Shown here: positions 3,302 to 51,644 of the stretch, one piece after another | Position numbering within the stretch: the stretch's first letter is position 1 | Layout: every line of letters begins with the position of its first letter | DNA from: Synechococcus sp. | GTDB lineage: Bacteria > Cyanobacteriota > Cyanobacteriia > PCC-6307 > Cyanobiaceae | Assembly (NCBI GenBank): GCA_047284725.1 | Contig: JBJBEO010000001.1 | Location: forward strand, 1,592,203-1,656,202 | DNA: 64,000 nucleotides | Direction of reading: 5' to 3' | Notes under the pieces: model-generated | The model's input: only the letters and a program-made list of their open reading frames with translations | What the model was told of the DNA's origin: nothing | Databases searched by the model: none | Translations under genes and position numbers: made by a program

Positions 3302-4360
3302 ATGAGCGACTCCCTGCCCCTGCTGCTGCGTGCCGCCCGCGGAGAGGCTGTAGAGCGTCCTCCGGTGTGGATGATGCGTCAGGCCGGCCGATACATGAAG
3401 ATCTATCGGGACCTGCGGGATAAGCATCCCAGCTTCAGGGAGCGCTCCGAGAACCCTGATCTCTCCTACGAGATCTCGATGCAGCCCTTTCACGCCTTCA
3501 AGCCTGATGGCGTGATTCTGTTCTCCGACATCCTCACGCCCCTGCCGGGGATGGGGATCGATTTTGACATCATCGAGAGCAAAGGCCCTCAGATCGGTGA
3601 TCCGATCCGCTCTATGGCCCAGGTGGATGCCCTCCGCCCCCTCAACCCCACTGAATCGATGCCCTTTGTGGGTGAAGTGCTGGGCCGACTTCGCCAGAGC
3701 GTGGGCAACGAAGCTGCGGTTCTGGGCTTTGTGGGTGCCCCATGGACCCTGGCCGCGTATGTAGTGGAAGGGAAGAGCAGCAAAAACTACGCGGTGATCA
3801 AGGCGATGGCCTTCCGCGAACCCGATATTCTCCACAAACTCCTCGACCACTTCGCCGAGTCGATTGCCAATTATCTCAGGTATCAGATTGATTCCGGAGC
3901 CCAGGTGGTGCAGATGTTCGATTCCTGGGCAGGTCAGCTCAGCCCTGCCGATTACGACACTTTCGCAGCGCCTTACCAGAAGAAAGTGGTCGATCTGGTG
4001 AAGCAGACCCATCCAGACACCCCGTTCATCCTCTACATCTCTGGCAGCGCCGGCGTGATCGAGCGGATGGCGGCCACCGGAGTTGACATTGTGTCGCTGG
4101 ACTGGACCGTTGACATGGCGGAAGCTCTGGCACGCCTGCCGAAAGACATCGGTGTGCAGGGAAACGTTGATCCCGGCCTGCTGTTCGGCTCCCCAGAAGC
4201 CATTGAAGCCCGTATCGACGACTGCGTGCGCAAAGCTCGCGGACGCAAGCACATCCTCAACCTCGGCCACGGCATCCTTCCCGGCACGCCCGAGGAAAAT
4301 GGTGCTGCTTTCTTCCGCTCGGGCAAGAGTGTGATGGAGCGCCTCGGCGCCCTGGCCTGA
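3302..4360 (+). CDS. hemE: Uroporphyrinogen decarboxylase
   Basis: [27 protein letters not shown] and NLGHGI motifs. Confidence 0.98.
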
Positions 4361-38145: not shown

Positions 38146-38370
38146 ATGGCCCAGGCCAAGCACACCATCGGTGAACTCGAAGCGGGATATCCCCTCTACT
38201 GCAAAGCGCTGCGTCGCCTGCTCAAGGAGGGGAGAAGCATTGAAGACATCAAGAAAACGGTGTGCTGGGGGCACCTCGAGAACCTCAACCGCTGTCTTCC
38301 TGGCCGCTACAAAGACCCCTCTTACCTGTTGGCCCTGATCCGCCGCGATCTTGAAGCCCCCAAGGATTGA
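38146..38370 (+). CDS. DUF3136-type small protein
   Basis: TIGELEAGYPLYCKALR...TVCW..LE.L..CLP.RY.P..L pattern. Confidence 0.75.
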   Translation: MAQAKHTIGELEAGYPLYCKALRRLLKEGRSIEDIKKTVCWGHLENLNRCLPGRYKDPSYLLALIRRDLEAPKD

Positions 38371-38389
38371 GCTGCGTTAGGGCATCGCC

Positions 38390-39038
38390 TCAAGGGGCTG
38401 CGTAAGAGACCCTGCTTCTGAGGATGTTCTCGGCATCGATCGTGATCAGTTCATCGCGGCGCATCGGTTCTCCCATTCGGGACAACAAACGGTTGGCCTG
38501 GAGCCGTCGCATGCGATCAATGCCATGACGAATCGAGCGAGCATTGGCGAACAACAGGAGCATCCTGCGACGACGGATTGAATCAGCGAACACCGCAAAT
38601 GCACCATCATTATTCGACAGCACTGCTGCCGCAACAACAATCGAGCAATCGCCATCGATTCATCATCGCTGTAATCAGGACAATCATCGAAGGCCTCCAT
38701 TTCTGCTTCTAACCTGCAAAGATCACCCAAAAATCGCCACGGAGCCTCTCCATATCGCTGAGAAGCGACTACAAGACCTTTACGGACATAACCGAGACGT
38801 TAAAGATCTGAGGCATTTTCTCCGCCACCGTGGTCTTTCCCGTGCCAGGACGACCCGTCAACGACCTCTGCAGACCGGGCACGTCACTGGTGAGACTGAG
38901 ACGGCGGCGTGCCTTCTCCACCAACAACAGAGCAGCGATCTCGCGAATTCAGGTTTTCACGGGACGCAAGCCGATCAGATCCTGATTCAACTGATCCAGC
39001 ACACAGCGACACCAAAATCGGCGTAACAGGTCGCTCAA
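38390..39038 (-). pseudogene. cbbX: Degraded cbbX (AAA+ Rubisco activase family)
   Basis: Hand-translated fragments [95 protein letters not shown]; two in-frame stops, several frameshifts, two internal deletions. Confidence 0.92.
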
Positions 39039-39293
39039 TCAATCGAGCAATCGATCCACTCCAGCCGCAAAGGCATGGTCTTCATCGTCAAGAAGAGCAC
39101 CCTCACTTTCATCAAGGGGTCGCAGAGTGATATTCACATACGTGCGACCGAAACTGATATCAGGGAAACGCTGGGTTTCTTCGCTGAATGAGCCCAAACG
39201 ATCAAGGAAATCGCGTGTAGCGCTGTAAGTCTCGAACTCGAAGCGACGCTCAAGTCTTATTGGACGTTTGCGCTCTTCCCACCCGTGCTTCAC
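39039..39293 (-). CDS. Pterin-4a-carbinolamine dehydratase-like Rubisco assembly factor (acRAF)
   Basis: W..RKRP.RLERRFEF..Y..TRDFLD...FPDISFG.TYVN; position in the cso locus. Confidence 0.88.
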   Translation of the reverse strand: MKHGWEERKRPIRLERRFEFETYSATRDFLDRLGSFSEETQRFPDISFGRTYVNITLRPLDESEGALLDDEDHAFAAGVDRLLD

Positions 39294-39319
39294 AGAACCA
39301 GATGCAGTCTGTGCTGAAC

Positions 39320-40456
39320 CTAGATCAACGCATCTCGACGGCAGCCCATCAAGCGCTCGGACCAGGCCTTGGCGTGAGCACGATTGGCCTCGATGGCTGC
39401 AGGGTCTGAGCTGTCGAGGGGATGGGGCATGGTGCCGGCAATGGCTCCGTTGGTGACGCAGAACATGGATTTCTGGAAACTGATGCAGATCTGGACATGG
39501 GCATCAACCTGACCACGACCATGGCTGTCGTACCAAGAGCTCAGCTCCTCAGGAAGATTGCGGAACATATCCGACATGCAGAGGCTGGGGGGAATGCCAG
39601 CACCCATGCTGGGAATCGGATCGGCATACAGAGCCCCGTATTGAAAGCTGCTGATATCGGGGGCAATTTGCTGGGCTTGGGCGTTGTAGGAAACAGTTCC
39701 AAGGAAGGGCATGCCCCTGAAAAACACTGCCTCCACGTAAGGAACAGCCACATCCATCAGAAAGGTCAGACCCGCTTCGGGGGGAAGAATCCAGATCTCC
39801 TCGTCTCCCTCCTTCACTTGGTACGTGATCGGATGGGCTGCAGCGGTCACCAGGCCATCACGGATGTGATGCACCACATCATTGACGCAAGCGACTTCGC
39901 CGATTCTGTAGCGACGTGCGAGATCGATGAAGATGTCGCTCATCACACGCCAGAACAAGCCCAAGGCGTAGATGGTGGTGAGAGATCGAATCGACTCCGG
40001 GGCAAACGCAGGGAACAAACGATTGATCGTCGCCATCAGTGGATCGCGGCGACAACGGAGGCGAATGATCCGATCACAAGCCTCGAGGAAAGGCTCAGTG
40101 TCGAAATAAGCATCCATGCCACCGGTGGCATGCCAGAACATCGCCTTCTGGCAATACTCCGCATACTCAAAATTGATGCGATCACCCATCAGGTGTTTCC
40201 AGAGGCGATCGAAGGAAAAGCCCTCATGGAAAAAGCGCATCACAGGGAAGGGCTTCAGAAGCTGTGTTTCCCCCTGAAACACCAAATTCCGGCTGTAGGC
40301 ATCGAGAACGATGCCGTAGCTCTCGAGCACATTGACCACCTGAAGAAGATGGTCAGGGGTATCAGCCAGTAAGGGACGATCCGACAGCAGTCGAGCCATC
40401 AGCTCATCGAGCTCAGGGATGGCCTGGGTGGCGTGGGGAGTCTGGGTCACAGTCAT
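39320..40456 (-). CDS. cupB: CO2 hydration protein ChpX/CupB
   Basis: LESYGIVLDAYS, DRINFEYAEYC..AMFWH, FFRG.PF.GT.SYNAQA, FQKSMFCVT. Confidence 0.92.
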   Translation of the reverse strand: MTVTQTPHATQAIPELDELMARLLSDRPLLADTPDHLLQVVNVLESYGIVLDAYSRNLVFQGETQLLKPFPVMRFFHEGFSFDRLWKHLMGDRINFEYAEYCQKAMFWHATGGMDAYFDTEPFLEACDRIIRLRCRRDPLMATINRLFPAFAPESIRSLTTIYALGLFWRVMSDIFIDLARRYRIGEVACVNDVVHHIRDGLVTAAAHPITYQVKEGDEEIWILPPEAGLTFLMDVAVPYVEAVFFRGMPFLGTVSYNAQAQQIAPDISSFQYGALYADPIPSMGAGIPPSLCMSDMFRNLPEELSSWYDSHGRGQVDAHVQICISFQKSMFCVTNGAIAGTMPHPLDSSDPAAIEANRAHAKAWSERLMGCRRDALI

Positions 40457-41961
40457 CAGAAAAGGCCTCCAGAGATCGACGTGACCGCGAGTTGGCTGAG
40501 GCCTGTGGTGGCCGCTTCACTCAGGCCCACCAGCAAGTGGGGGACAAGACCAAGCACGAGGACACCAAGAGACAGGAGGATGGCTGGCATCTGCTGAGCA
40601 AGAGGTACTGGGGAAAGAACCCGTGGCATGGGGTCCTGGCCTGCAGCGATGGCCAGACGACCAAAGAATGCTCGGTTGACCAAAAGCAGGAAATAAACGG
40701 CGGTCAAGCCGGATCCCACCATGCTCATCAGCGTGGACACAGGGAAGGGCCCAAGGCTTCCACGGAAGATGAGGAATTCGGAAATAAATCCAGCCATCCC
40801 TGGAATACCTGCACTGGCCATCACTCCGATAATCATCAGGGTGCCGCTGAGAGGCAGACCTCGCTGCGGATTCAGCAGGCCTCGCAGGATATTGAGATCA
40901 CGGGTGCCGGTGCGGTCATAAACAACGCCAACAACAAGAAAGAGGATGGCCGAGATCAGGCCATGACTCACCATCTGGAACAGAGCACCAATCAAACCAA
41001 GAGGGGTTGCAGCCGCAGCCGCCAGAAGCACGTAGCCCATATGGCCAACGGAGCTGTAGGCAACCATCTTCTTCATGTCCGTTTGGGCGATGGCAGCAAG
41101 GGAGCCATAAAGGACGGAAACTGCGGCCCAACCTGCCATCCATGGCGCTGCCAATTGCCATGCCTCGGGGAAAAGGCCAAGGCAGAAGCGCAGCAAGCCA
41201 TAAGTTCCAAGCTTCAAAAGCACCCCTGCCAACAACACAGACACGGGTGTGGAGGCCTCGGTGTGAGCATCCGGAAGCCAGGTATGGAAGGGGAAGAGAG
41301 GGATCTTGATACCAAAACCGATCAGCAATGCTCCCATCAGCAGCAGTTGGGTCGCGATCGGTAATGCGCCAGGCATCACCGGATTGAGACTGAAGTCGAC
41401 ACTCCCTGACAGGAGAGCTAAGCCGAGGAAGGCAGCGAGGATCAGAATCCCCGAAACGGCAGTGACGATCAGAAACTTAGTGGAGGCGTAGGCCCTGTTG
41501 GCCCCTCCCCAGATGGCAATCAACAACCAGAGAGGGATCAATTCCAGTTCATAGAACAGGAAGAAGAGAAGGAGATTCTGGGCCAGAAAAGCACCGTTGA
41601 CCGCTCCACTGATCACCAGCAGGAGTGCGAAGTAAATCCTGGGGCGATTCTCGATGGTGCGGGAGGCCAGAGCCGCAACCAAGCACAGCACTCCATTCAT
41701 CAGCACCAGAGGCATGGAGAGGCCATCCACTGCCAACGCATAATCCAGACCAATGCTGGGAAGCCAGGCGGCCTGCTCAATCAACTGAAGACCTGAGTCA
41801 GCTGGATTGAAGGGAATCAGCAGAGCTGCACTGGCAACGCATTGAGCCACAAGCACAACTGCTGTCAACGAGCGAAAAAAAGCACTGGTGCGATCACCTG
41901 GAATCAATGTGATCAGGAATGCTCCCAGGAAGGGAATGAGGAGAAGAAGAGAGAGGAGCAT
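40456..41961 (-). CDS. ndhD4: NDH-1 subunit D4 (CO2 uptake)
   Basis: NuoM-family motifs FYELELIP, HTWLPDAH, AYSSVGHMG; between ndhF4 and cupB. Confidence 0.9.
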   Translation of the reverse strand: MLLSLLLLIPFLGAFLITLIPGDRTSAFFRSLTAVVLVAQCVASAALLIPFNPADSGLQLIEQAAWLPSIGLDYALAVDGLSMPLVLMNGVLCLVAALASRTIENRPRIYFALLLVISGAVNGAFLAQNLLLFFLFYELELIPLWLLIAIWGGANRAYASTKFLIVTAVSGILILAAFLGLALLSGSVDFSLNPVMPGALPIATQLLLMGALLIGFGIKIPLFPFHTWLPDAHTEASTPVSVLLAGVLLKLGTYGLLRFCLGLFPEAWQLAAPWMAGWAAVSVLYGSLAAIAQTDMKKMVAYSSVGHMGYVLLAAAAATPLGLIGALFQMVSHGLISAILFLVVGVVYDRTGTRDLNILRGLLNPQRGLPLSGTLMIIGVMASAGIPGMAGFISEFLIFRGSLGPFPVSTLMSMVGSGLTAVYFLLLVNRAFFGRLAIAAGQDPMPRVLSPVPLAQQMPAILLSLGVLVLGLVPHLLVGLSEAATTGLSQLAVTSISGGLF

Positions 41962-41967
41962 CGTTGA

Positions 41968-43812
41968 TCAGCGCAACAGCCAGCTCAGAGAGCTGAGGAA
42001 GAGAAGAATGGCGGCAACCACCGTGAGCACATAGGTCTGGCTACGGCCGCTAATGCTGAGCTTGAGGCTCTCAGCACTGCTGAGGGAGAACCGAGCCATG
42101 CCATGGAGCAAACCATCCACCACAACACGATCAAAGGCGTAGGCGAGCCTTGAGAAACCGGCCACGACGTTGACGATGGTGATGCGGTAGAAGCGCTCGG
42201 TGTAGAAGTCGAAGGCCAGAAGGTCTTGGAGCGATCGCACGAGGGGGTTGAGCGAGCGGGACCAAGCCTTGTTCAAGGGAAGCAGGATTCCAGCAATCAC
42301 GCCGATCAAGCCGCTGCCGACCACAAGCCCCGCCGCCCAGAGAGGGAATGCGAGCAGACCTTCGAGGGATTCGAGTCGGATCAGAAAAATGGGGGTCAGG
42401 ATCACGATGACGGTCATCGCCACCATGGGGAACGCCATCTGCCAGTTCACCTCTGCGGCGCGACGTGTCTTCAGCAAGGGCTGGCCAAGGAACACATGGC
42501 GATAAACACGGGCAAGGTTGAGAGCGGTCAGGGCATTGGTCACCAGGAAGATGGCCACCAATCCTGATGACCGAGCACCAATCAACTCAACCGATTGGGC
42601 AAGACAGAGGAAGCCTCCCAGGGGCAGCAAACCAACCAGACCAGCTCCGCCCACCAGAAAAGCGGTGGTGGTGGCTGGCATACGTCCACCGAGACCACCA
42701 AGCTCGGTGATGTCCTGACAGTTGGTCGCGGCGATCACACCACCAACGCTCATGGACAGCAAGGCTTTCGAGACGGCATGGGAAAAGAGGATCAAGAGGG
42801 CCAGAACAGGCACCTGGAGGGCAATCGCAATGAAGACCAGGCCCAGATAGGCGGTGGTGGAATACGAAAGGGTCCGCTTGATGTCGACCTGAGCAATTGA
42901 GACAAGAGAGCCACCAATGGCACTGATGGCACCCACCACCTGCAGAACGACCAGGGTGACGGGGGCGTGTTGCAGCAGTGGCATCACCTTGAGGAGCACG
43001 ATGGCCCCGCAGGTCACCACCACGGAATTGCGAAGAATCGAGGCTGGATTCGGTCCCTCCATGGCTTCGTCAAGCCAAAGGTGCATCGGGAACTGGGCGC
43101 ACTTGCCCATGGGTCCGGCAATGAGGCCTAGACCGATCAGGGTTGTCGCCAGAGAAGAAAGATTGTCTTCAGCGGCCCACGCGTAAAGATCATCGAAACC
43201 CATGACCCCTGCGTAGGCAGCGAGGGAGACAACACCCATCAAGAGCAACACATCACCAACGCGCTTGGTGAGGAAGGCATCCCTAGCGGCGGTGATCACC
43301 AGAGGCTGGGCATACCAGAAACCAACCAGAAGGTAGGTCGAGAGGGTGAGCATCTCCAGGAGGAAATAGCTCTGGAACAGGGTGTCGCTGAGGACCACAC
43401 CTGACATCGCGCCCTCAAAAAAGCCGAGTAAGGCAAAGAAGCGGGCCAGAGCCCACTCCTTGTCCATGTAACCCAGCGAATAAATCTGAGACACAAGGCT
43501 CAGACCGGTAATCAATTCAAGAGCCGCCACATTGGTGAGCGACAGGCTGAAGCTGATGTCGAGCTTCAGGTCCGCAACGCTGAGCCAGGGGTAATGGAGC
43601 GTGGCAGGGCCAAGCGTGATCACGTCCTGCAACACGAAACTTCCGTGAACGAAAGCCAAGAACGTGAGGAGGATGTTCAGGTAAGCCGCAGGACGGTGCG
43701 CATCACGGCGGAACCAGCCAGCAGCCCAGGGAAGAGCCAACACCATCCCGGTGAACCCATAGAGAGGGATTAACCAGGACGTCTGTTCAGCGAAGGTCAG
43801 ATCCGAAATCAA
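41968..43812 (-). CDS. ndhF4: NDH-1 subunit F4 (CO2 uptake)
   Basis: AARDAFLTKRVGD, KCAQFPMHLWLDEAMEGPNPAS; likely TTG start 43812. Confidence 0.9.
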   Translation of the reverse strand: MISDLTFAEQTSWLIPLYGFTGMVLALPWAAGWFRRDAHRPAAYLNILLTFLAFVHGSFVLQDVITLGPATLHYPWLSVADLKLDISFSLSLTNVAALELITGLSLVSQIYSLGYMDKEWALARFFALLGFFEGAMSGVVLSDTLFQSYFLLEMLTLSTYLLVGFWYAQPLVITAARDAFLTKRVGDVLLLMGVVSLAAYAGVMGFDDLYAWAAEDNLSSLATTLIGLGLIAGPMGKCAQFPMHLWLDEAMEGPNPASILRNSVVVTCGAIVLLKVMPLLQHAPVTLVVLQVVGAISAIGGSLVSIAQVDIKRTLSYSTTAYLGLVFIAIALQVPVLALLILFSHAVSKALLSMSVGGVIAATNCQDITELGGLGGRMPATTTAFLVGGAGLVGLLPLGGFLCLAQSVELIGARSSGLVAIFLVTNALTALNLARVYRHVFLGQPLLKTRRAAEVNWQMAFPMVAMTVIVILTPIFLIRLESLEGLLAFPLWAAGLVVGSGLIGVIAGILLPLNKAWSRSLNPLVRSLQDLLAFDFYTERFYRITIVNVVAGFSRLAYAFDRVVVDGLLHGMARFSLSSAESLKLSISGRSQTYVLTVVAAILLFLSSLSWLLR

Positions 43813-43924
43813 GAGGAGGTGACGAGAACAGTTGCGGGAGCACCGCATTGGCTGCGGAATCTAAACCGAGGGCCCTCGAAATGACTTGGTTTCTCCAGGA
43901 TCACGCGAGGGCTGTAAAGGGACT

Positions 43925-44497
43925 TCAGAGTCGGCGGGTCGCACCTGATGCAACCAGAGCAGGCTCCACCTCCTGGTGAGGGCGGGCAATGATGTGGGCA
44001 GCCACAAGGCCATCACCGACACGCTCACAGGCATCAGCACCAGCTCTCACGGCAGCGTTCACGGCGCCGGTTTCTCCGCGCACCATGACGGTGACGTAGC
44101 CACCCCCGACAAATTCGCGGCTGACGAGGCTGACTTCAGCAGCCTTGGTCATGGCATCGGCCGCCTCAATCGCAGGCACCACACCGCGGGTCTCGATCAT
44201 GCCCAGGGCGATGCCTTGCACAGAGCGCTCAGGGCTCCCTGACGAAGCGCGCGTCACAACAGATCCACCACCGCTGTTGGAGGATCCGGACTTGGCTGCA
44301 GACCCTGATGCGCGAGCGGGTGTGCGCCTGGAAGCACTGGTTGCCGCACTGCGGGAGGCCGTCGTTGACGTGGAGCTCGACGACGTCGTTGCAGCAGCTG
44401 CAACAGGTTTGACATCCACGGTTGCCTTCGCGGCGGGTTGAGCCGCAGAGGGTTTGGAGGAAGCGCTGGAACGACGACGGGGAGTGGGGGTGGCCAT
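43925..44497 (-). CDS. csoS1E: BMC-H shell protein with long low-complexity N-terminal extension
   Basis: About 90-aa S/A/T/R-rich arm, then GIALGMIETRG...HIIARPH BMC domain. Confidence 0.88.
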   Translation of the reverse strand: MATPTPRRRSSASSKPSAAQPAAKATVDVKPVAAAATTSSSSTSTTASRSAATSASRRTPARASGSAAKSGSSNSGGGSVVTRASSGSPERSVQGIALGMIETRGVVPAIEAADAMTKAAEVSLVSREFVGGGYVTVMVRGETGAVNAAVRAGADACERVGDGLVAAHIIARPHQEVEPALVASGATRRL

Positions 44498-44540
44498 GAC
44501 GGAGGAAGGAATACAGGACGGAAAGGGAACGGAGCGCTAG

Positions 44541-44792
44541 CTATCCATCCGGTGTCCAGTTGTCGATGATCCCGCCAATGGTGAGATCGGTGAGGACGGT
44601 GTTGTCGGGGCAGGCATGACGGGCAGCCGAACCGCTGGCCGTGAACACCCAGTTGCCCTCACGGGCCCCGACGGGATCAACTCCAACAAGGGTTTTGCCC
44701 TTGTTGTTCTTGAGAAGACGCAGGTGCATGTGATCCAATCCGGCGACACGGAACGTGCACACGAGCGTTCCTGTCACCTGCATGATCTCCAT
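44541..44792 (-). CDS. csoS4B: Carboxysome pentamer B
   Basis: MEIMQV...DPVGAREGNWVFTASGSAAR...TDLTIGGIID. Confidence 0.93.
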   Translation of the reverse strand: MEIMQVTGTLVCTFRVAGLDHMHLRLLKNNKGKTLVGVDPVGAREGNWVFTASGSAARHACPDNTVLTDLTIGGIIDNWTPDG

Positions 44793-45124
44793 CAGCCGGC
44801 AGTCCCCTTGGGAGCAGAAGATGCCGCACCGGAAGACTTCGGAGCAGGCGATGGAGCAGCACTTGAAGAAGATTTCGGAGGGTCGGGCTCCCAATGATCG
44901 ATGATGCCAACGATGGTGAGATCACTGGGATAAGACTTGCTCCCAGCCGCCTCACGGGCGGCAGAGCTGCTCACACAGATGACCCAGTCACCCGGCTTGG
45001 CACCGACCGCATCGACAGCCACTTTCTTGGTGCTGCCATCAAGCACCACCTGAAGATGCTTGTGTTCGAAATCAGGAATCCGGTTCGTCGAGACCAGAGG
45101 CTTGATGACCTTGACAATCAACAT
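44792..45124 (-). CDS. csoS4A: Carboxysome pentamer A
   Basis: LVSTNRIP.FEH..LQVV..VAVDAVG.KPGDWV..SSAAR...PSDLTIVGIID. Confidence 0.93.
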   Translation of the reverse strand: MLIVKVIKPLVSTNRIPDFEHKHLQVVLDGSTKKVAVDAVGAKPGDWVICVSSSAAREAAGSKSYPSDLTIVGIIDHWEPDPPKSSSSAAPSPAPKSSGAASSAPKGTAG

Positions 45125-45126
45125 GA

Positions 45127-46917
45127 TCAGTGAGCCTCCTGCTGAACAGGTTCGAGGGTGGACCCTACCGCTTCGGCAGGAATGGGCTGATCACGGTCTC
45201 GAACCGTGAGTAACAGATGCAAAAGACCTTCGCGGACGAGGTCTTGGTAGCGCGTGGTGATGGCGTCCTGAACACGGCGGCAGTCGGAGATGGCGCGATC
45301 GCGAGCACCAGGGACTTTGCCGGAGTAATCGAAACGAACAACCACTGGAATCGGCAGATCCCGTGAGACGTTCAGCCCCTTGAAGATCTTCACGCCGACG
45401 TCGAGATCGGGAGCGCCTTCTTCGACCGTGTCGAGATGGGCGAAATAGGTGAGGTTGCGCAAATGCACTTCCTTGAACCCGATACCGACGCCGATGAAAC
45501 GCTCAGCATGGCCCGCATCGGGGTAAGGACCATGGTGCAGAGACCGCACATAATCCTGCTGAGAGATGTTGTTGATCAACAACTGGCTGATGAACCGCAC
45601 CATCCCGGGATCCGGTGCCTGGGGGCAATGGGTTTGAACAGCGGCCGTGACAGCCTCGGATGCCTGGTCCGCCGTCAGGGGAGCTGTGCTCTCGTAAAGC
45701 GATTGGGCAGACAGCCAGCGATCGAGCTGAATCTCACCATCACGGCTCGGCACGTGCACGCGGATCGCATCGGTATCGGTGTCGAGGCCGATCAGAAGAA
45801 GATCCACCGACGCGCCACAGCAGAAGCTGTTTTCGACAGCCTCACGAAAGTCGTGGAGTCTCTGGAGACCAGCACTGGCTGCGAGAGCGTCATTGCTGCC
45901 ATGGGCAGCACAACCTTGATGGTGGGGATCAAGGGAGCTGAAGTGATAGGTGACCGTTTTCAGATATCGGGTTGGTGCATGGGCTTCGTTAGGAAGACTC
46001 TCGCGGTACCGCCGGTGTTCGGTCTTGACCCAACGGTTGACGGTGTTTTCAACATCAAACAGAGCCCCTGCGTGGGAGCGGCGCCGCACTGCACTGAAGG
46101 GAATGCGTAGGGCATAGGCAATCGAATGAGCCAGCCGGCCATCAGCACAAGGCGTCACGTCGAGCAGATGAAACCCGCACTCCAGGAGGAACGCATTGAA
46201 GGCGTCAGCAGGTGCACTTCCGGCGGAACCTCCAAGGGGATCATCCAGGAAGAACCTCTCACTGAAGGCCTGATGCGACTGAAACACACACCAGGCAAAC
46301 AGGGCACGCATGTCCAGTGGACGCACCCAGGATTTTTCAAGAATGTGGTCGGGTAGATCAAAGCCCAACTCAGCCCGGGCGAGTCGTTGTGCCTGATCAA
46401 GGAAGTCGGCGTCGTGCTGCAGTGCAGACACTTTCTGCAAAAGCGGAATGATCCGCTCAAACCGGCCCTTCACCTCCAGCTCATAGGCCTGAAGTCGGGC
46501 GTTGTCCTCAAGGTTGGTGAGGGGATGGGTGCCGAGAACACCACGCTGAGAAGCAGTGGCAGAGCGAAAACGAGCCCTGGGTGAACACGAGGGCTCCGAC
46601 TTGCCGGTGTCTTTCTTACGCCGAACCCAGTTGGGTTGCTGCGTAACGGGACGTCGCGTGTCCCGACCCGTACGGGTCCGACCACCGCTCACGGTTCCAG
46701 CATTGAGAACTGCGGCTTTGCCGGAGGTCGTCAGCGCTTTACGCCGCTCAAGAGCAGCACTTCGGGTGGAGGTGATGGCTGGCTCGGTTAAAGCCTGATC
46801 GGATGAAGACGAGGCTTTGGTTAAGACAGCAGTGGTGCTGACTTGTTGAAGCTGTCGACGAGTGGGAGCTGTAGGGGCCATGGGGCGCCCGCTCCGAGAC
46901 GATTGAGGGCGCACCAT
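45127..46917 (-). CDS. csoSCA: Carboxysomal carbonic anhydrase
   Basis: HPLT, PCADGRL, HQGCAAHGS, GHAERFIG. Confidence 0.95.
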   Translation of the reverse strand: MVRPQSSRSGRPMAPTAPTRRQLQQVSTTAVLTKASSSSDQALTEPAITSTRSAALERRKALTTSGKAAVLNAGTVSGGRTRTGRDTRRPVTQQPNWVRRKKDTGKSEPSCSPRARFRSATASQRGVLGTHPLTNLEDNARLQAYELEVKGRFERIIPLLQKVSALQHDADFLDQAQRLARAELGFDLPDHILEKSWVRPLDMRALFAWCVFQSHQAFSERFFLDDPLGGSAGSAPADAFNAFLLECGFHLLDVTPCADGRLAHSIAYALRIPFSAVRRRSHAGALFDVENTVNRWVKTEHRRYRESLPNEAHAPTRYLKTVTYHFSSLDPHHQGCAAHGSNDALAASAGLQRLHDFREAVENSFCCGASVDLLLIGLDTDTDAIRVHVPSRDGEIQLDRWLSAQSLYESTAPLTADQASEAVTAAVQTHCPQAPDPGMVRFISQLLINNISQQDYVRSLHHGPYPDAGHAERFIGVGIGFKEVHLRNLTYFAHLDTVEEGAPDLDVGVKIFKGLNVSRDLPIPVVVRFDYSGKVPGARDRAISDCRRVQDAITTRYQDLVREGLLHLLLTVRDRDQPIPAEAVGSTLEPVQQEAH

Positions 46918-46924
46918 CCCTCGA

Positions 46925-49300
46925 TCAGCCCCGTGCGCCGCCGGAGACGGTGATCAGGGAACCCTTATCCGTGTTGCCGCTGGAACCGGTCACACGGCTG
47001 ACGGGCCATTCAGTCTCTTCGTTGCGCTTGCGCTCAAAAGGAGACATGGCGCTCATCGGACCGGGACGGCTGGGGTTACGGCGACGGGCAGATGCGCCCT
47101 CGGTGCCGGTGACATGCTCACCACGATCCCAATCGTCACCGGTGATCTTGCTGGAAGACCCTTCGCCGGTGACCCGGGAGGCTGGCTTGGCGGGGGGCTC
47201 GCTGACGACGGCAACGGTCGGCTGGAACTGACGCTGCTGCTGACGGTTCTGGAATTCGCGGTTATCGAAGCGGAATTGCTCGGTACCGGTCACCTTGCCG
47301 CCAGCCATGTCAAAAGGGCCGGTAATCCGATTCCCTTGTTCATAAGACGTACCCGTCACGCCGGAGCGAGCATCACGCTGCTGCTGAGCAGCACGGGCGG
47401 GAGACACCACGCTGAAGCGGGTCCAGGCAGCTCCATCGGGAGCTTCACCGTGGGTCTCGGTTCCAGCAGGAGCATCACTGCCGCAGGCAGCGGCCAGTTG
47501 ATCGGCTCCCACGTAAGGAGTGCCGGTCACCGCTTCACAAGCACCGCGCTCATCACCGGTCATCACACCACCAACGCCAGGCTGGATACCGGTCATGGCA
47601 GCGGAAGGGGTGCCCAGACGGACAGGGGTACGCTCGCGGATGGCTTGCACAGCGGGCGTCCCGCAGTGCTGGCCAGCTTGCTCGAGGCCGGCATAGGGGG
47701 TGCCGGTGACGGCCTGGCAGCTTCCGGGCTCATCGCCGGTGACGCGCTCGGAGCGACCGGTGCGGGTACCGCTCACCACCTGATTGCGATTGGTGATGCT
47801 GAAACCGACCTTGGCGGCTTCGGGCTCAGGCCTGCTGCCACAGAAGGCATTGACCTGCTCGGCACTGACGTATTGATCACCGGTGACGCGGTGGCAAGAG
47901 CCGAACTCATCGCCGGTGACAGCAGAGGAGCGACCCACCATGGTGCCGGTGACGCCAGTACCAGACAGAGTTGCCGAAACGCCAACCTTGGCGGCAGGGC
48001 GACCTTCGGGAAGGGGATCAGAGCCGAGGTACTGGTCGCCGGTCAGGCTGCGACCCGCACCGGCTTCATCACCGGTGACGCTGGAGGAACGGCCCACCAT
48101 CACGCCGCTGACGGGGCGGCCCTCGAGGGTGAGGCTATGGCCCACCTTGCGAGGTGAAGGGTTGGAGCCGCCGCAATAAGCAGCAGATTGGTTGGCAGAG
48201 ATGTATTCGGTGCCGGTCACGGCCTTGCAGGTGCCAGGCTCATCGCCGGTGACCTTGCTGGAACGACCCACTTCGTTGCCCGTCACCCTGTTGCCATGGG
48301 TGGTGGCAGTGACGCGAACCTTGGCAGGCGTGGTTGGTTCTGGAGCGGTCTGGCAGAAGGTCTGGAAGACCTCAGCACCGAGATACTCGGTGCCGGTGAT
48401 CGAGCGGCAGGTGCTGGCCTCATTGCCGGTTGTTTTCACCGAGCGGTTGGCCTGGGTACCGGTGACGGTCTGACCACCGGTGGTGGTGCTTTCACCGACC
48501 TTCCAATGGGCATCAGCGGCAGCAGCTTGCTTGGCGCCATGACGGTTAGGGCCGGTCGGGCGGGTCACACCAGCGCTTTGCTTGTTGCGGGCACCTGCCT
48601 TGGTGCGCAGCTCACGCACCTGTTGAGCGAGCTCACGGCTGGTGAGATCAGGGTTGGCCTGACGAGCAACGGCTGCTGCGCTCGTGGGCTGCTTGCCAGC
48701 GGTTTTGCCATGCTTCGCCATGGCTTCACGACGGGCCAACACCAGTGCTCGACTGGGGTTTTCGATGGCACGACGCTTCGGGGAGGATGTACGTCGCTCC
48801 GCAGCAGCACGGCGATCACCGGAGCGATTGCTCAGCTCAACAGTGACTGCAGGACGTGCTGATTTTTCAGCAGCACGGGCTCCGCCACAACCGCACTCTT
48901 TCTTGGCCGGTTCAGCAGCGGCAGCGGGCTTGGTCGTGCGGGCGACATCAGAGCGGTTGCGATCCCGACTGGTGTCGGCAGTTTTGCCGCGGCGGGACAG
49001 GGCTTCACGGCGAGCCAGTACCAGTTCGCGGCTGGGCTGACGGACGGCCTTCACCTGGGAGGAGTGGGAAGACGAGGTACGCGGGGCGCCGGCGCTCAGA
49101 CCGGAGGAACGGGTCGGAGCAGCGGGAGTAGCCGCTACAGGAGCCGAAGCCTCAGCAGCGTTGGTGCGGGTCTTACGTGCATCTGTAGCGGTACGCACAC
49201 GATTGGCCTGGTCACCGGCAGCAACCGATGCTTTCTTACCGGCCGTAGTCAACGCCTTGCGGCGCTCAAGTGCGAGTTCGCGACTGGAGAGTCTTGCCAT
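46925..49300 (-). CDS. csoS2: Carboxysome assembly scaffold CsoS2
   Basis: Four N-terminal SR.L...RR.A peptides, multiple (V/I)TG middle repeats, C-terminal ITVSGGARG. Confidence 0.96.
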   Translation of the reverse strand: MARLSSRELALERRKALTTAGKKASVAAGDQANRVRTATDARKTRTNAAEASAPVAATPAAPTRSSGLSAGAPRTSSSHSSQVKAVRQPSRELVLARREALSRRGKTADTSRDRNRSDVARTTKPAAAAEPAKKECGCGGARAAEKSARPAVTVELSNRSGDRRAAAERRTSSPKRRAIENPSRALVLARREAMAKHGKTAGKQPTSAAAVARQANPDLTSRELAQQVRELRTKAGARNKQSAGVTRPTGPNRHGAKQAAAADAHWKVGESTTTGGQTVTGTQANRSVKTTGNEASTCRSITGTEYLGAEVFQTFCQTAPEPTTPAKVRVTATTHGNRVTGNEVGRSSKVTGDEPGTCKAVTGTEYISANQSAAYCGGSNPSPRKVGHSLTLEGRPVSGVMVGRSSSVTGDEAGAGRSLTGDQYLGSDPLPEGRPAAKVGVSATLSGTGVTGTMVGRSSAVTGDEFGSCHRVTGDQYVSAEQVNAFCGSRPEPEAAKVGFSITNRNQVVSGTRTGRSERVTGDEPGSCQAVTGTPYAGLEQAGQHCGTPAVQAIRERTPVRLGTPSAAMTGIQPGVGGVMTGDERGACEAVTGTPYVGADQLAAACGSDAPAGTETHGEAPDGAAWTRFSVVSPARAAQQQRDARSGVTGTSYEQGNRITGPFDMAGGKVTGTEQFRFDNREFQNRQQQRQFQPTVAVVSEPPAKPASRVTGEGSSSKITGDDWDRGEHVTGTEGASARRRNPSRPGPMSAMSPFERKRNEETEWPVSRVTGSSGNTDKGSLITVSGGARG

Positions 49301-49327
49301 GTCCGCCCGAGGATGTCGTCGTGAATG

Positions 49328-49380
49328 GAAGGGATGAATCCCTTCGGGAAAAAGTTGAGCCCTGATGAAGGTCAGGGCTC
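49328..49380 (-). terminator. Double hairpin between cbbS and csoS2
   Basis: GAGCCCTGA/TCAGGGCTC stem (49357-49380) followed on the minus strand by AACTTTTT; second stem GAAGGGA/TCCCTTC near 49328-49345. Confidence 0.65.
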
Positions 49381-49400
49381 GGAACCGTTAGGTCGAGGGA

Positions 49401-49742
49401 TCAGCGACCCTCGAAGACCACGAAGCAGGCACCCTGGCTTTGGGTGTAGGCGTCGTAACCGACGATGCGCACGTGGTGGTCGGGGTAAGCGCGATGGCAA
49501 GCCTCGAGCTCACTGACCACAACGTTGAGGTCCTTCTCACCGAAGAAGGGGAGCTTCCAATAGGACCAGTAGGTGGCCATGGAGTTGCTGGGGTGGACGT
49601 GCTCAACGAGCGGGCTCCAGCCCTGGGCAATGATGTACGCGATCTGGTCGTAGATCTCGTCCTGGGTCATCGGCGGGAGGAAGCCGAAGGTCTCCAGGGT
49701 GGCGACTGTTTGATAGTCACCCACGGTGCTCTGGAAAGGCAT
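49401..49742 (-). CDS. cbbS: Rubisco small subunit (Form IA)
   Basis: LETFGFLPPM, YWSYWKLPFF, GYDAYTQSQG. Confidence 0.97.
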   Translation of the reverse strand: MPFQSTVGDYQTVATLETFGFLPPMTQDEIYDQIAYIIAQGWSPLVEHVHPSNSMATYWSYWKLPFFGEKDLNVVVSELEACHRAYPDHHVRIVGYDAYTQSQGACFVVFEGR

Positions 49743-49848
49743 GGGGATCCTGGTTTACGTAAGTGTGTTGGCCGGAACTGTTGTTATGCGGCCGGAGTCG
49801 TGACGAAGAACGGGTGGAGAGTGCCAGTGATGGCACCCTCCGAACCGA

Positions 49849-51264
49849 TCAGTTCTGGACGTCGAGCTTGTCGACGGTGTCGAACTCGAACTTGATCTCC
49901 TTCCAGGTCTCGAGGGCGATGGCCAGCTCGGGGCTGTGCTTCGCGGCTTCCATGAGGATGTCGCGGCTCTCTTTCTCGAGATGACGACCGGCGTTGCGTG
50001 CCTTGACGCAGGCCTCGAGGGCCACACGGTTGGCAGCTGCACCTGCAGCGGAACCCCAGGGGTGACCGTGGGTACCACCACCGAACTGCAGAACGGAGTC
50101 GTCGCCGAAGATGGTGACGAGGGCGGGCATGTGCCACACGTGGATACCGCCGGACGCAACGGCGAACACGCCAGGCATGGAACCCCAGTCCTGATCGAAG
50201 AAGTTACCGCGGCTGCGATCTTCTGGAACGAAGGATTCGCGCAGTTGGTCGATATAGCCGAGGGTGGTCTGACGATCACCCTCCAGCTTGCCGACCACGG
50301 TGCCGGTGTGGAGCTGGTCACCACCGGACAGACGCAGACACTTGGCGAGAACGCGGAAGTGGATGCCGTGCTTGGGGTGACGGTCGATCACCGCGTGCAT
50401 GGCGCGGTGAATGTGCAGGAGCATGCCGTTCTTGCGGCACCACTTCGACAGACCGGTGTTGGCCGTGAAGCCGCCGGTGATGAAGTCGTGCATGATGATC
50501 GGCATGCCGAGTTCCTTGGCGAACTCAGCGCGCTCGTACATCTCTTCGGGAGTGTTCGCGGTCACGTTGAGGTAGTGACCCTTGCGCTCACCGGTCTCCT
50601 GCTCAGACAGCTTGATGGCTTCCGCAACGAACTCGAAGCGGTTCTGCCAACGCTGGAAGGGCTGGGAGTTGATGTTCTCATCGTCCTTGGTGAAGTCCAG
50701 ACCGCCACGCAGGCACTCATAGACAACACGGCCGTAGTTCTTACCGCTCAGGCCGAGCTTCGGCTTGATGGTGCAACCCAGCAGAGGACGGCCGTACTTG
50801 TTCATCCGGTCGCGCTCGACCTGGATGCCGTTCGGCGGGCCGTAGCAGCTCTTGATGAAGGCCATCGGGAAGCGGATGTCTTCCAGACGGAGGTGGCGCA
50901 GCGCCTTGAAACCGAACACGTTGCCGACCAGGGAGGTCAGAACGTTGGTGATGGAACCCTCTTCGAACAGATCGAGGGGGTAGGCGATGAACGCATAGAA
51001 GGACTCCTTGTCACCAGGGACGTCTTCGATGCGATAACACCGGCCCTTGTAGAAGTCGAGGTCGGTGAGGAGCTCGGACCACACTGTGGACCAGGTGCCG
51101 GTGGAGGATTCAGCAGCCACAGCAGCGGCGACTTCTTCCTTGGGCACACCTTCCTGGCCGGTGCACTTGAAGCAGGCCAGCAGGTCGGTGTCGAGGGGAA
51201 CGTAATCAGGAGTCCAGTAAGTGTCCCTGTACTCCTTGACCCCAGCGTCGTACTTCTTGCTCAT
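49849..51264 (-). CDS. cbbL: Rubisco large subunit (Form IA)
   Basis: [11 protein letters not shown] catalytic motif, ESSTGTW, ASGGIH. Confidence 0.99.
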
Positions 51265-51332
51265 GGAATAACTCCGTTAGGTCGGTGAAAAAAATGAGAT
51301 GCGCAACCTCGTCAGAGGTTCAGCTGCCGATC

Positions 51333-51644
51333 TCAGTCCTTTTGGCCGAGGAAGTTGCCGTTGCCCAGAGCAGGCTCTACTTCGCGGTGGGGGCGAGCAA
51401 TGATGTGAGCAGCAACGAGACCGTCACCAACGCGCTCGCATGCATCGGCACCGGCACGCACAGCGGCGTTGACAGCACCGGTTTCGCCGCGCACCAGAAC
51501 AGTGACGTAGCCGCCACCGACGAACTCACGACCGATCAGGCGCACTTCGGCAGCCTTGGTCATGGCGTCAGCTGCTTCGATCGCGGGGACCAGGCCGCGG
51601 GTCTCGATCATGCCGAGAGCGATGCCCATGGTTTCGTTAGCCAT
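51333..51644 (-). CDS. csoS1: Major carboxysome shell hexamer
   Basis: GIALGMIETRGLVPAIEAADAMTKAA BMC domain; first gene of the cso operon. Confidence 0.96.
   Translation of the reverse strand: MANETMGIALGMIETRGLVPAIEAADAMTKAAEVRLIGREFVGGGYVTVLVRGETGAVNAAVRAGADACERVGDGLVAAHIIARPHREVEPALGNGNFLGQKD

Follow-up and report, generated by a model that had tools for sequence, protein, structure and literature searches.

The window, by which the whole 64-kb stretch of DNA analysed here is meant, belongs to the genome of a marine-type picocyanobacterium, a Synechococcus sp. strain (designated G000 where it is compared with other genomes), which was assembled as a single contig (2,581,549 bases, 99.98% completeness). 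It includes a cso carboxysome operon and, downstream of this, the gene string ndhF-ndhD-chpX-acRAF-cbbX, the last member of which is present as a remnant. The genes and features of the locus are as follows.

51333..51644, minus strand: csoS1, intact
49849..51264, minus strand: rbcL, 471 aa, intact
between rbcL and csoS2 in the gene list, minus strand: rbcS, 113 aa, intact
46925..49300, minus strand: csoS2, intact
45127..46917, minus strand: csoSCA, carboxysomal carbonic anhydrase, intact
within 39320..51644, minus strand: csoS4A and csoS4B, intact
within 39320..51644, minus strand: csoS1-like gene for a 190-aa BMC-domain protein, intact
within 39320..51644, minus strand: ndhF, ndhD and chpX (CO2-hydration protein), intact
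39320..51644, minus strand: the intact upstream genes from csoS1 to chpX as a block
39039..39293, minus strand: acRAF, intact, pterin-4a-carbinolamine-dehydratase-like protein of 84 aa (PF01329, 33.3 bits)
38390..39055, minus strand: cbbX pseudogene, reaching from the former start codon (ATC at present) to an early TGA, collinear with 21 intact orthologues
38146..38370, plus strand: DUF3136 gene, convergent with cbbX (PF11334, 123 bits) and conserved downstream of cbbX in relatives

An earlier note on this DNA, made from its letters and open reading frames, had described an intact carboxysome locus with clean neighbours, and all genes from csoS1 to chpX are indeed open, with scores as expected. 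The gene order chpX, acRAF, cbbX and an opposing DUF3136 gene is the same in every relative whose locus was read; for all of these, the further claim that cbbX is usual at this position is likewise true.

In intact relatives the cbbX start codon lies within acRAF, the two genes sharing 17 nt at ATGGACTCATCGATTGA. This overlap is present in all seven relatives in which it was read, out of ten (L007, L011 and L013 being the remainder), and it suggests translational coupling of the two genes. By analogy with the relatives, the first base of the remnant is 39055, which places it inside acRAF; the last 17 nt of acRAF are shared with the ancestral cbbX start. It thus occupies 39055-38390 of the minus strand and is 666 nt long, as compared with ~906–924 nt for intact orthologues, and the start at 39038 and the length of 649 bp given in the earlier note have to be replaced by these values.

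At the DNA level, acRAF carries 7.0 changes per 100 columns that are specific to G000, versus 1.5 for the outgroup genome G023. Decay of acRAF was considered and rejected, as the encoded protein is 89–90% identical to those of the nearest relatives and none of 13 invariant positions is changed. The fourth-last residue of the protein has changed from Gly to Arg (GVDGLLD to GVDRLLD; codon GGA to CGA), and the base responsible is the one that removed the ATG of cbbX. A plus-strand ORF of 160 aa (38544-39026), without a Pfam match, runs opposite the remnant and has probably arisen by chance in GC-rich DNA.

Structure of the cbbX remnant

Every CbbX-like block quoted in the earlier note was found on the minus strand. 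In a three-frame translation of 38330-39100 the blocks, including FANARSIRHGIDRMRRLQANRL, are spread over three frames, and they are collinear with intact CbbX. The TIGR02880 (cbbX_cfxQ) model matched two pieces in different frames, one at 38802-39005 (87 bits, with one internal TGA) and the other at 38408-38608 (53 bits); a full-length match above the cut-off of 459.25 bits in a single open frame was not found at the remnant, and intact congeners reach 495–518 bits. Comparison by tblastn with an intact orthologue placed query residues 19-86 at 39002-38799 (68% identity, E 5e-22), residues 194-218 at 38685-38611, and residues 219-286 at 38611-38408. These segments follow one another as in intact CbbX and lie in three different frames. 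The C-terminal block of the remnant is 53–65% identical to intact CbbX.

Lesions were mapped against a codon alignment of the 21 intact orthologues, all from the same genus. The positions below run from the ancestral start to the terminal stop.

39053..39055, minus strand: start codon ATG changed to ATC (ATG in 20 of 21 orthologue rows; row 21, L005, is an extraction without the true start)
39035..39037, minus strand: TGA at ancestral codon 7 (Leu codons in orthologues)
39004/39003 junction, minus strand: 1-nt deletion at ancestral codon 18, the first frameshift (codon alignment)
38949..38951, minus strand: TGA at ancestral codon 36 (Arg in orthologues, R of VKTRIREI)
38832..38855, minus strand: surviving Walker A motif GRPGTGKT (translation and alignment)
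38806/38805 junction, minus strand: 1-nt deletion at codon 84 (codon alignment)
38800..38802, minus strand: TAA at ancestral codon 86 (codon alignment)
38766/38765 junction, minus strand: 164-nt deletion of ancestral codons 98–152, with loss of YVGHTAPKT and FIDEAY
38709..38711, minus strand: TAG at ancestral codon 171 (Tyr in orthologues, Y of FAGYK)
38689..38706, minus strand: net loss of 43 nt over ancestral codons 173–192, by which SNPGLSSR (after FAGYK) is removed
38612/38611 junction, minus strand: 1-nt deletion at ancestral codon 218 (codon alignment)
38390..38623, minus strand: longest surviving open frame, 77 aa with a GTG start, the C-terminal AAA-lid part (PF17866 AAA_lid_6, 33.2 bits)
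38390..38392, minus strand: early terminal TGA at ancestral codon 292 (Glu in orthologues)

The exact placement of the 43-nt loss depends on the alignment: either 43 nt are missing at 38706/38705, or 1 nt at 38704/38703 and 42 nt at 38690/38689. The TGA at 38949-38951, the TAG at 38709-38711, the Walker A motif at 38832-38855 and the several frameshifts reported earlier were all located. Of the two deletions proposed in the earlier note, the one near 38765 amounts to 164 nt (codons 98–152) and takes the pore-loop and Walker B region, and the one near 38689 amounts to ~43 nt around 38704-38689 and takes the SNPG..SR segment. Beyond these, the alignment revealed the lost ATG, the stops at codons 7 and 86, and the 1-nt deletions at 39004/39003, 38806/38805 and 38612/38611.

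We take YVGHTAPKT to be the pore loop, FIDEAY the Walker B motif, and SNPGLSSR the arginine-finger region. With these three elements gone from the DNA itself, no ATPase is possible under any reading of the remnant. Erosion extends to what is left of the gene. The 21 intact proteins agree fully in 163 columns. Deletion or frameshift has removed 54 of these from the remnant, which still covers 109 and departs from the shared residue in 24. The remnant resembles CbbX (TIGR02880) in its collinearity, in having kept Walker A and the AAA-lid, and in its conserved place after acRAF, and differs from a working CbbX in that the start is lost, stops and frameshifts are present, and the Walker B, pore-loop and SNPGLSSR parts are deleted. 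At its ancestral site, 38390-39055 is a true unitary pseudogene of cbbX, and one of some age.

Authenticity of the lesions and loss of constraint

Contigs from four sequencing runs (X2–X5), out of 18 runs listed, were compared with the window. X2, probably a sequencing run of the source strain, yielded a Logan contig of 152,568 nt (depth 122.7) that spans 38200-39400. It is free of indels and differs from the window at two bases, 39219 A>G and 39288 C>T, both of which read as synonymous third positions in acRAF. X4 and X5 also have G at 39219; hence the A of the window is the odd one out at this position. X3, a marine metagenome from another study, gave contigs covering 38201-38531 and 38627-38808 with no differences. 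A 632-nt contig from X4, a wetland metagenome, covers 38200-38815 with four substitutions and no gaps, and represents a slightly diverged strain that carries the same lesions over the covered part. X5, a synthetic community labelled cDNA and judged to be probably DNA, covers 38272-38758 with no differences; given this label, the remnant may be transcribed.

Since the X3 and X4 contigs carry them, both large junctions, the TAG, the 38612/38611 deletion and the terminal TGA exist in unrelated samples. An exact 30-mer over the junction of the 164-nt deletion had no match in JGI metagenome contigs, from which the window's own genome was possibly left out. Matches to a 19-mer of this junction at six JGI loci (L089–L094) were dismissed as chance, as only 19–21 nt are shared and the composition is unrelated.

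These data bear on the idea that the cell has an intact gene and that the lesions are homopolymer or consensus errors. Single-base indels are typical of long-read errors, and the window differs from X2 at 39219 and 39288, from which it follows that the deposited assembly either contains errors or derives from a subclone. Against such errors stand the independent X2 contig, which at a depth of 122.7 has no indels across 38200-39400, and the unrelated metagenome contigs with the same two large junctions, TAG, 38612/38611 deletion and terminal TGA; besides, deletions of 164 and ~43 nt and 24 changed residues among 109 invariant ones are not error signatures. For 38200-38815 the artefact is already refuted. 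The 5' third (~38816-39023) is covered by X2 only, and what is excluded there is assembly error alone. Over the whole remnant, the chance of an artefact is negligible, and the claim in the earlier note of real gene loss, not sequencing error, is borne out by the independent X2 assembly without indels and by the unrelated X3 and X4 contigs.

The age of the loss was approached through relatives. The nearest usable ones, G061 and G043, share 83% and 82% DNA identity, respectively, with G000 over acRAF-chpX-ndhD, and both have an intact cbbX. Change at each codon position was counted on the G000 and G061 branches with G023 as the outgroup; values are given for codon positions 1/2/3.

cbbX, G000 branch: 0.204/0.167/0.391
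cbbX, G061 branch: 0.070/0.022/0.323
ndhD and chpX, G000 branch: 0.044/0.014/0.279
ndhD and chpX, G061 branch: 0.048/0.010/0.244

The ndhD and chpX genes are symmetric between the two branches. Second positions of cbbX in G000 have changed at ~8 times the rate of the sister branch and at ~40% of their own third-position rate. Changes found only in G000 amount to 10.5 per 100 columns in the remnant, 3.7 in ndhD and 3.1 in chpX; the corresponding values for G023, which has a similar depth, are 3.3 in cbbX, 3.2 in ndhD and 2.7 in chpX. Judged by these codon patterns, protein-level constraint on cbbX is gone in G000. As a rough estimate, the gene would have been drifting for a substantial part of the G000 branch and would not be a recent casualty.

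cbbX and alternative activases in the genome and in relatives

The earlier note had left a choice between a paralog elsewhere and a strain without CbbX. The complete genome decides for the latter. A search with TIGR02880 matched the remnant only, and the same result was obtained by tblastn (E <= 1e-3) with two of the 21 intact CbbX proteins, L008 and L016, as queries. CbbQ, another activase that the earlier note had named, was sought through its CbbQ_C domain (PF08406), which has no match in the complete genome.

Proteins matching PF00004 number 21, and 11 of them were identified: a generic 546-aa AAA protein, RuvB, a RarA-like protein, ClpX, DnaX, a MoxR-type AAA_3 protein, a SpoIIIAA-like protein, YifB, PilT, RadA and Der. 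The other ten, judged by length and domain number alone, include four of FtsH size and two-domain proteins of Clp type. No known Rubisco activase was recognised among the 21, ten of which are typed by length or domain number alone. Two of the identified proteins are considered further below.

Outside the window, G000:C1:2376532-2377446 (L036): 304-aa MoxR-type AAA_3 ATPase (PF07726, 186 bits)
Outside the window, G000:C1:1936082-1937722 (L031): 546-aa generic AAA protein (PF00004)

In a comparison of 30 loci, RbcL (471 aa) and RbcS (113 aa) of the strain agreed at every residue with their counterparts in two genomes that have an intact cbbX, G051 and G054, and the C-terminal tail is the same. 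A compensatory change of Rubisco was therefore rejected, both subunits being identical to those of two cbbX-bearing congeners.

The genus is represented by 45 other genomes, of which 42 were searched with TIGR02880. A full-length cbbX over the cut-off is present in 39 of the 42, and no match was found in G012 (56% complete), G021 (63% complete) and G057 (94% complete). G021 is the nearest sampled genome (87% identity over ndhD-chpX), and its contig (G021:C104, L029) ends inside chpX. In G057 (G057:C24, L058), acRAF (4090-4344, minus strand) and the DUF3136 gene (3765-4022, plus strand) are 67 nt apart with no cbbX between them. G057 thus resembles the strain studied in that it belongs to the same genus and has acRAF and the convergent DUF3136 gene at the same locus, but has a clean deletion without a remnant, whereas 666 nt of decayed gene are left in G000. 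Upstream of acRAF in G057, an Imm11-family gene is present in place of chpX; hence this locus is rearranged. G057 shares 84% and 83% identity with G061 and G043, respectively, over a 671-nt DUF3136-Rid region, and less, 79%, with G000. None of 200 bootstrap trees from the maximum-likelihood analysis of these 671 nt, which leaves the eight-genome clade unresolved, unites G000 with G057, and uniting them is not rejected by the AU test (p = 0.213).

Family-wide, with a filter of 90% completeness, 249 of 395 genomes match TIGR02880 over the cut-off. The gene is missing from entire small-genome genera: in genus g40 a match was obtained for two of 93 genomes, both being other AAA paralogs, and cbbX was found in none of 18 genomes of g41, two of g42, three of g43, four of g44 and three of g28. 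Several matches below the cut-off were considered as pseudogenes and rejected: those in G161, G169, G202 and G245 are cut by contig ends, and those in G391, G331 and G340 belong to a different AAA paralog. The proteins of the latter three (G391:C305, L045/L048; G331:C17; G340:C135) have 507–894 aa and score 217–256 bits with TIGR02880, less than its cut-off, and one of them has two tandem CbbX-like AAA modules. They make up a different class of CbbX-like paralogs. G000 is therefore the sole genome among those searched in which a decaying cbbX is visible.

Form IA Rubisco without CbbX

CbbX was reportedly characterised as a red-type Rubisco activase in Rhodobacter sphaeroides by Mueller-Cajar and co-workers in 2011. 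The fate of its gene in the strain studied has to be seen against a literature in which its role in alpha-cyanobacteria is hedged. A 2026 review (PMC12918739) says in the relevant passages that the activase role in these organisms "is thought to be performed by" CbbX. Whether acRAF and CbbX are required "is not yet known", as Long et al. (2018) put it in the corresponding part of their paper (PMC6120970). Since these sources, as far as the passages concerned go, hedge the role, to call the strain activase-free presupposes that CbbX activates form IA Rubisco. In proteobacteria, the functional analogue that serves the form IA carboxysomal Rubisco is CbbQ/CbbO, as described in parts of PMC8718961 and PMC4633670; this system of the proteobacterial alpha-carboxysomes is absent here, PF08406 being without a match in the genome. 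The former source also notes, in its passage on the subject, that activase genes are often missing from carboxysome-bearing genomes, and takes this to suggest that the function "is not strictly required" (PMC8718961).

In the complete genome, neither a further copy of cbbX nor another activase could be recognised. We therefore consider it very probable (about 0.93) that the strain, and the wild populations with the same allele, use form IA Rubisco without CbbX, the remnant being a dead cbbX.

It is unlikely that the loss is compensated by a non-homologous or unrecognised protein that removes Rubisco inhibitors. Candidates for such a role are encoded, namely the 304-aa MoxR-type ATPase (PF07726, 186 bits) and the 546-aa AAA protein, and CbbQ of proteobacteria is of the MoxR class, as stated in the part of the literature consulted on this activase. 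However, CbbQ_C is absent genome-wide, both genes lie outside the 64-kb carboxysome window (at 2.377 and 1.936 Mb, as compared with 1.592–1.656 Mb), and Rubisco is unchanged, so that no new interaction surface is apparent. Still less credence is given to a remnant that works in a reduced form, whether as the 77-aa AAA-lid peptide (38623-38390), as a shortened protein made by recoding or frameshifting, or as a 3' untranslated region or terminator of acRAF. The match of the 77-aa frame to PF17866 AAA_lid_6 (33.2 bits), the 53–65% identity of the C-terminal block to intact CbbX, a terminator-like hairpin on the minus strand at 38754-38738, and the X5 contig labelled cDNA, which spans 38272-38758, are all in its favour. 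Yet, as the Walker B, pore-loop and SNPGLSSR parts are deleted, there is no ATPase, the C-terminal block also departs from invariant residues, and codon-position periodicity is mostly lost; the two sites given by the terminator scan are not significantly more than the 0.9 ± 0.9 of shuffles, and X5 is judged to be probably DNA.

Use of form IA Rubisco without CbbX is hence the reading that is carried further. The gene has lost its start and gained four stops, frameshifts and deletions, with the result that no AAA+ ATPase can be produced. By the rough estimate above, it has drifted without protein-level constraint through a good part of the time since the split from the nearest sampled relatives. 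CbbX-type metabolic repair would be dispensable for this Rubisco in the habitat of the organism, and a loss under such conditions would be neutral or nearly so. The likeliest account is that this lineage came to do without CbbX-type repair and that cbbX decayed under neutral or nearly neutral conditions.

A wider proposal is more tentative, and we would put it at somewhat less than an even chance. The strain and the populations that share its allele may constitute a natural cbbX null. If the loss is without cost, CbbX would not be obligatory for alpha-cyanobacterial form IA Rubisco, which would release its inhibitors by itself fast enough, and the role of CbbX elsewhere would be conditional or non-classical. 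Were this true, the repeated loss of cbbX, by decay in G000, by deletion in G057 and seen as absence in subcluster 5.3 and the small-genome genera, would reflect such a Rubisco. Congeneric strains offer a ready-made natural comparison of an identical Rubisco with and without CbbX, and this comparison bears on which accessory genes are needed when alpha-carboxysomes are moved into crops, and on why activases are often missing in carboxysome-bearing genomes, as remarked in the passage of PMC8718961 quoted above.

In other respects this is ordinary gene decay. Its novelty is modest, for other lineages of picocyanobacteria are known to have lost cbbX: the gene is absent lineage-wide from picocyanobacterial subcluster 5.3, according to the passages on this gene in PMC9361551 and PMC9477826. 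In a full-text search of the literature available, no paper with a cbbX pseudogene in a congener of this kind was found. Subcluster 5.3, as far as those passages describe it, and the small-genome genera share with the strain an alpha-carboxysome, form IA Rubisco and the lack of CbbX. The strain differs from them in that the loss occurred inside a genus that mostly keeps cbbX (39/42) and that the decaying remnant is still visible.
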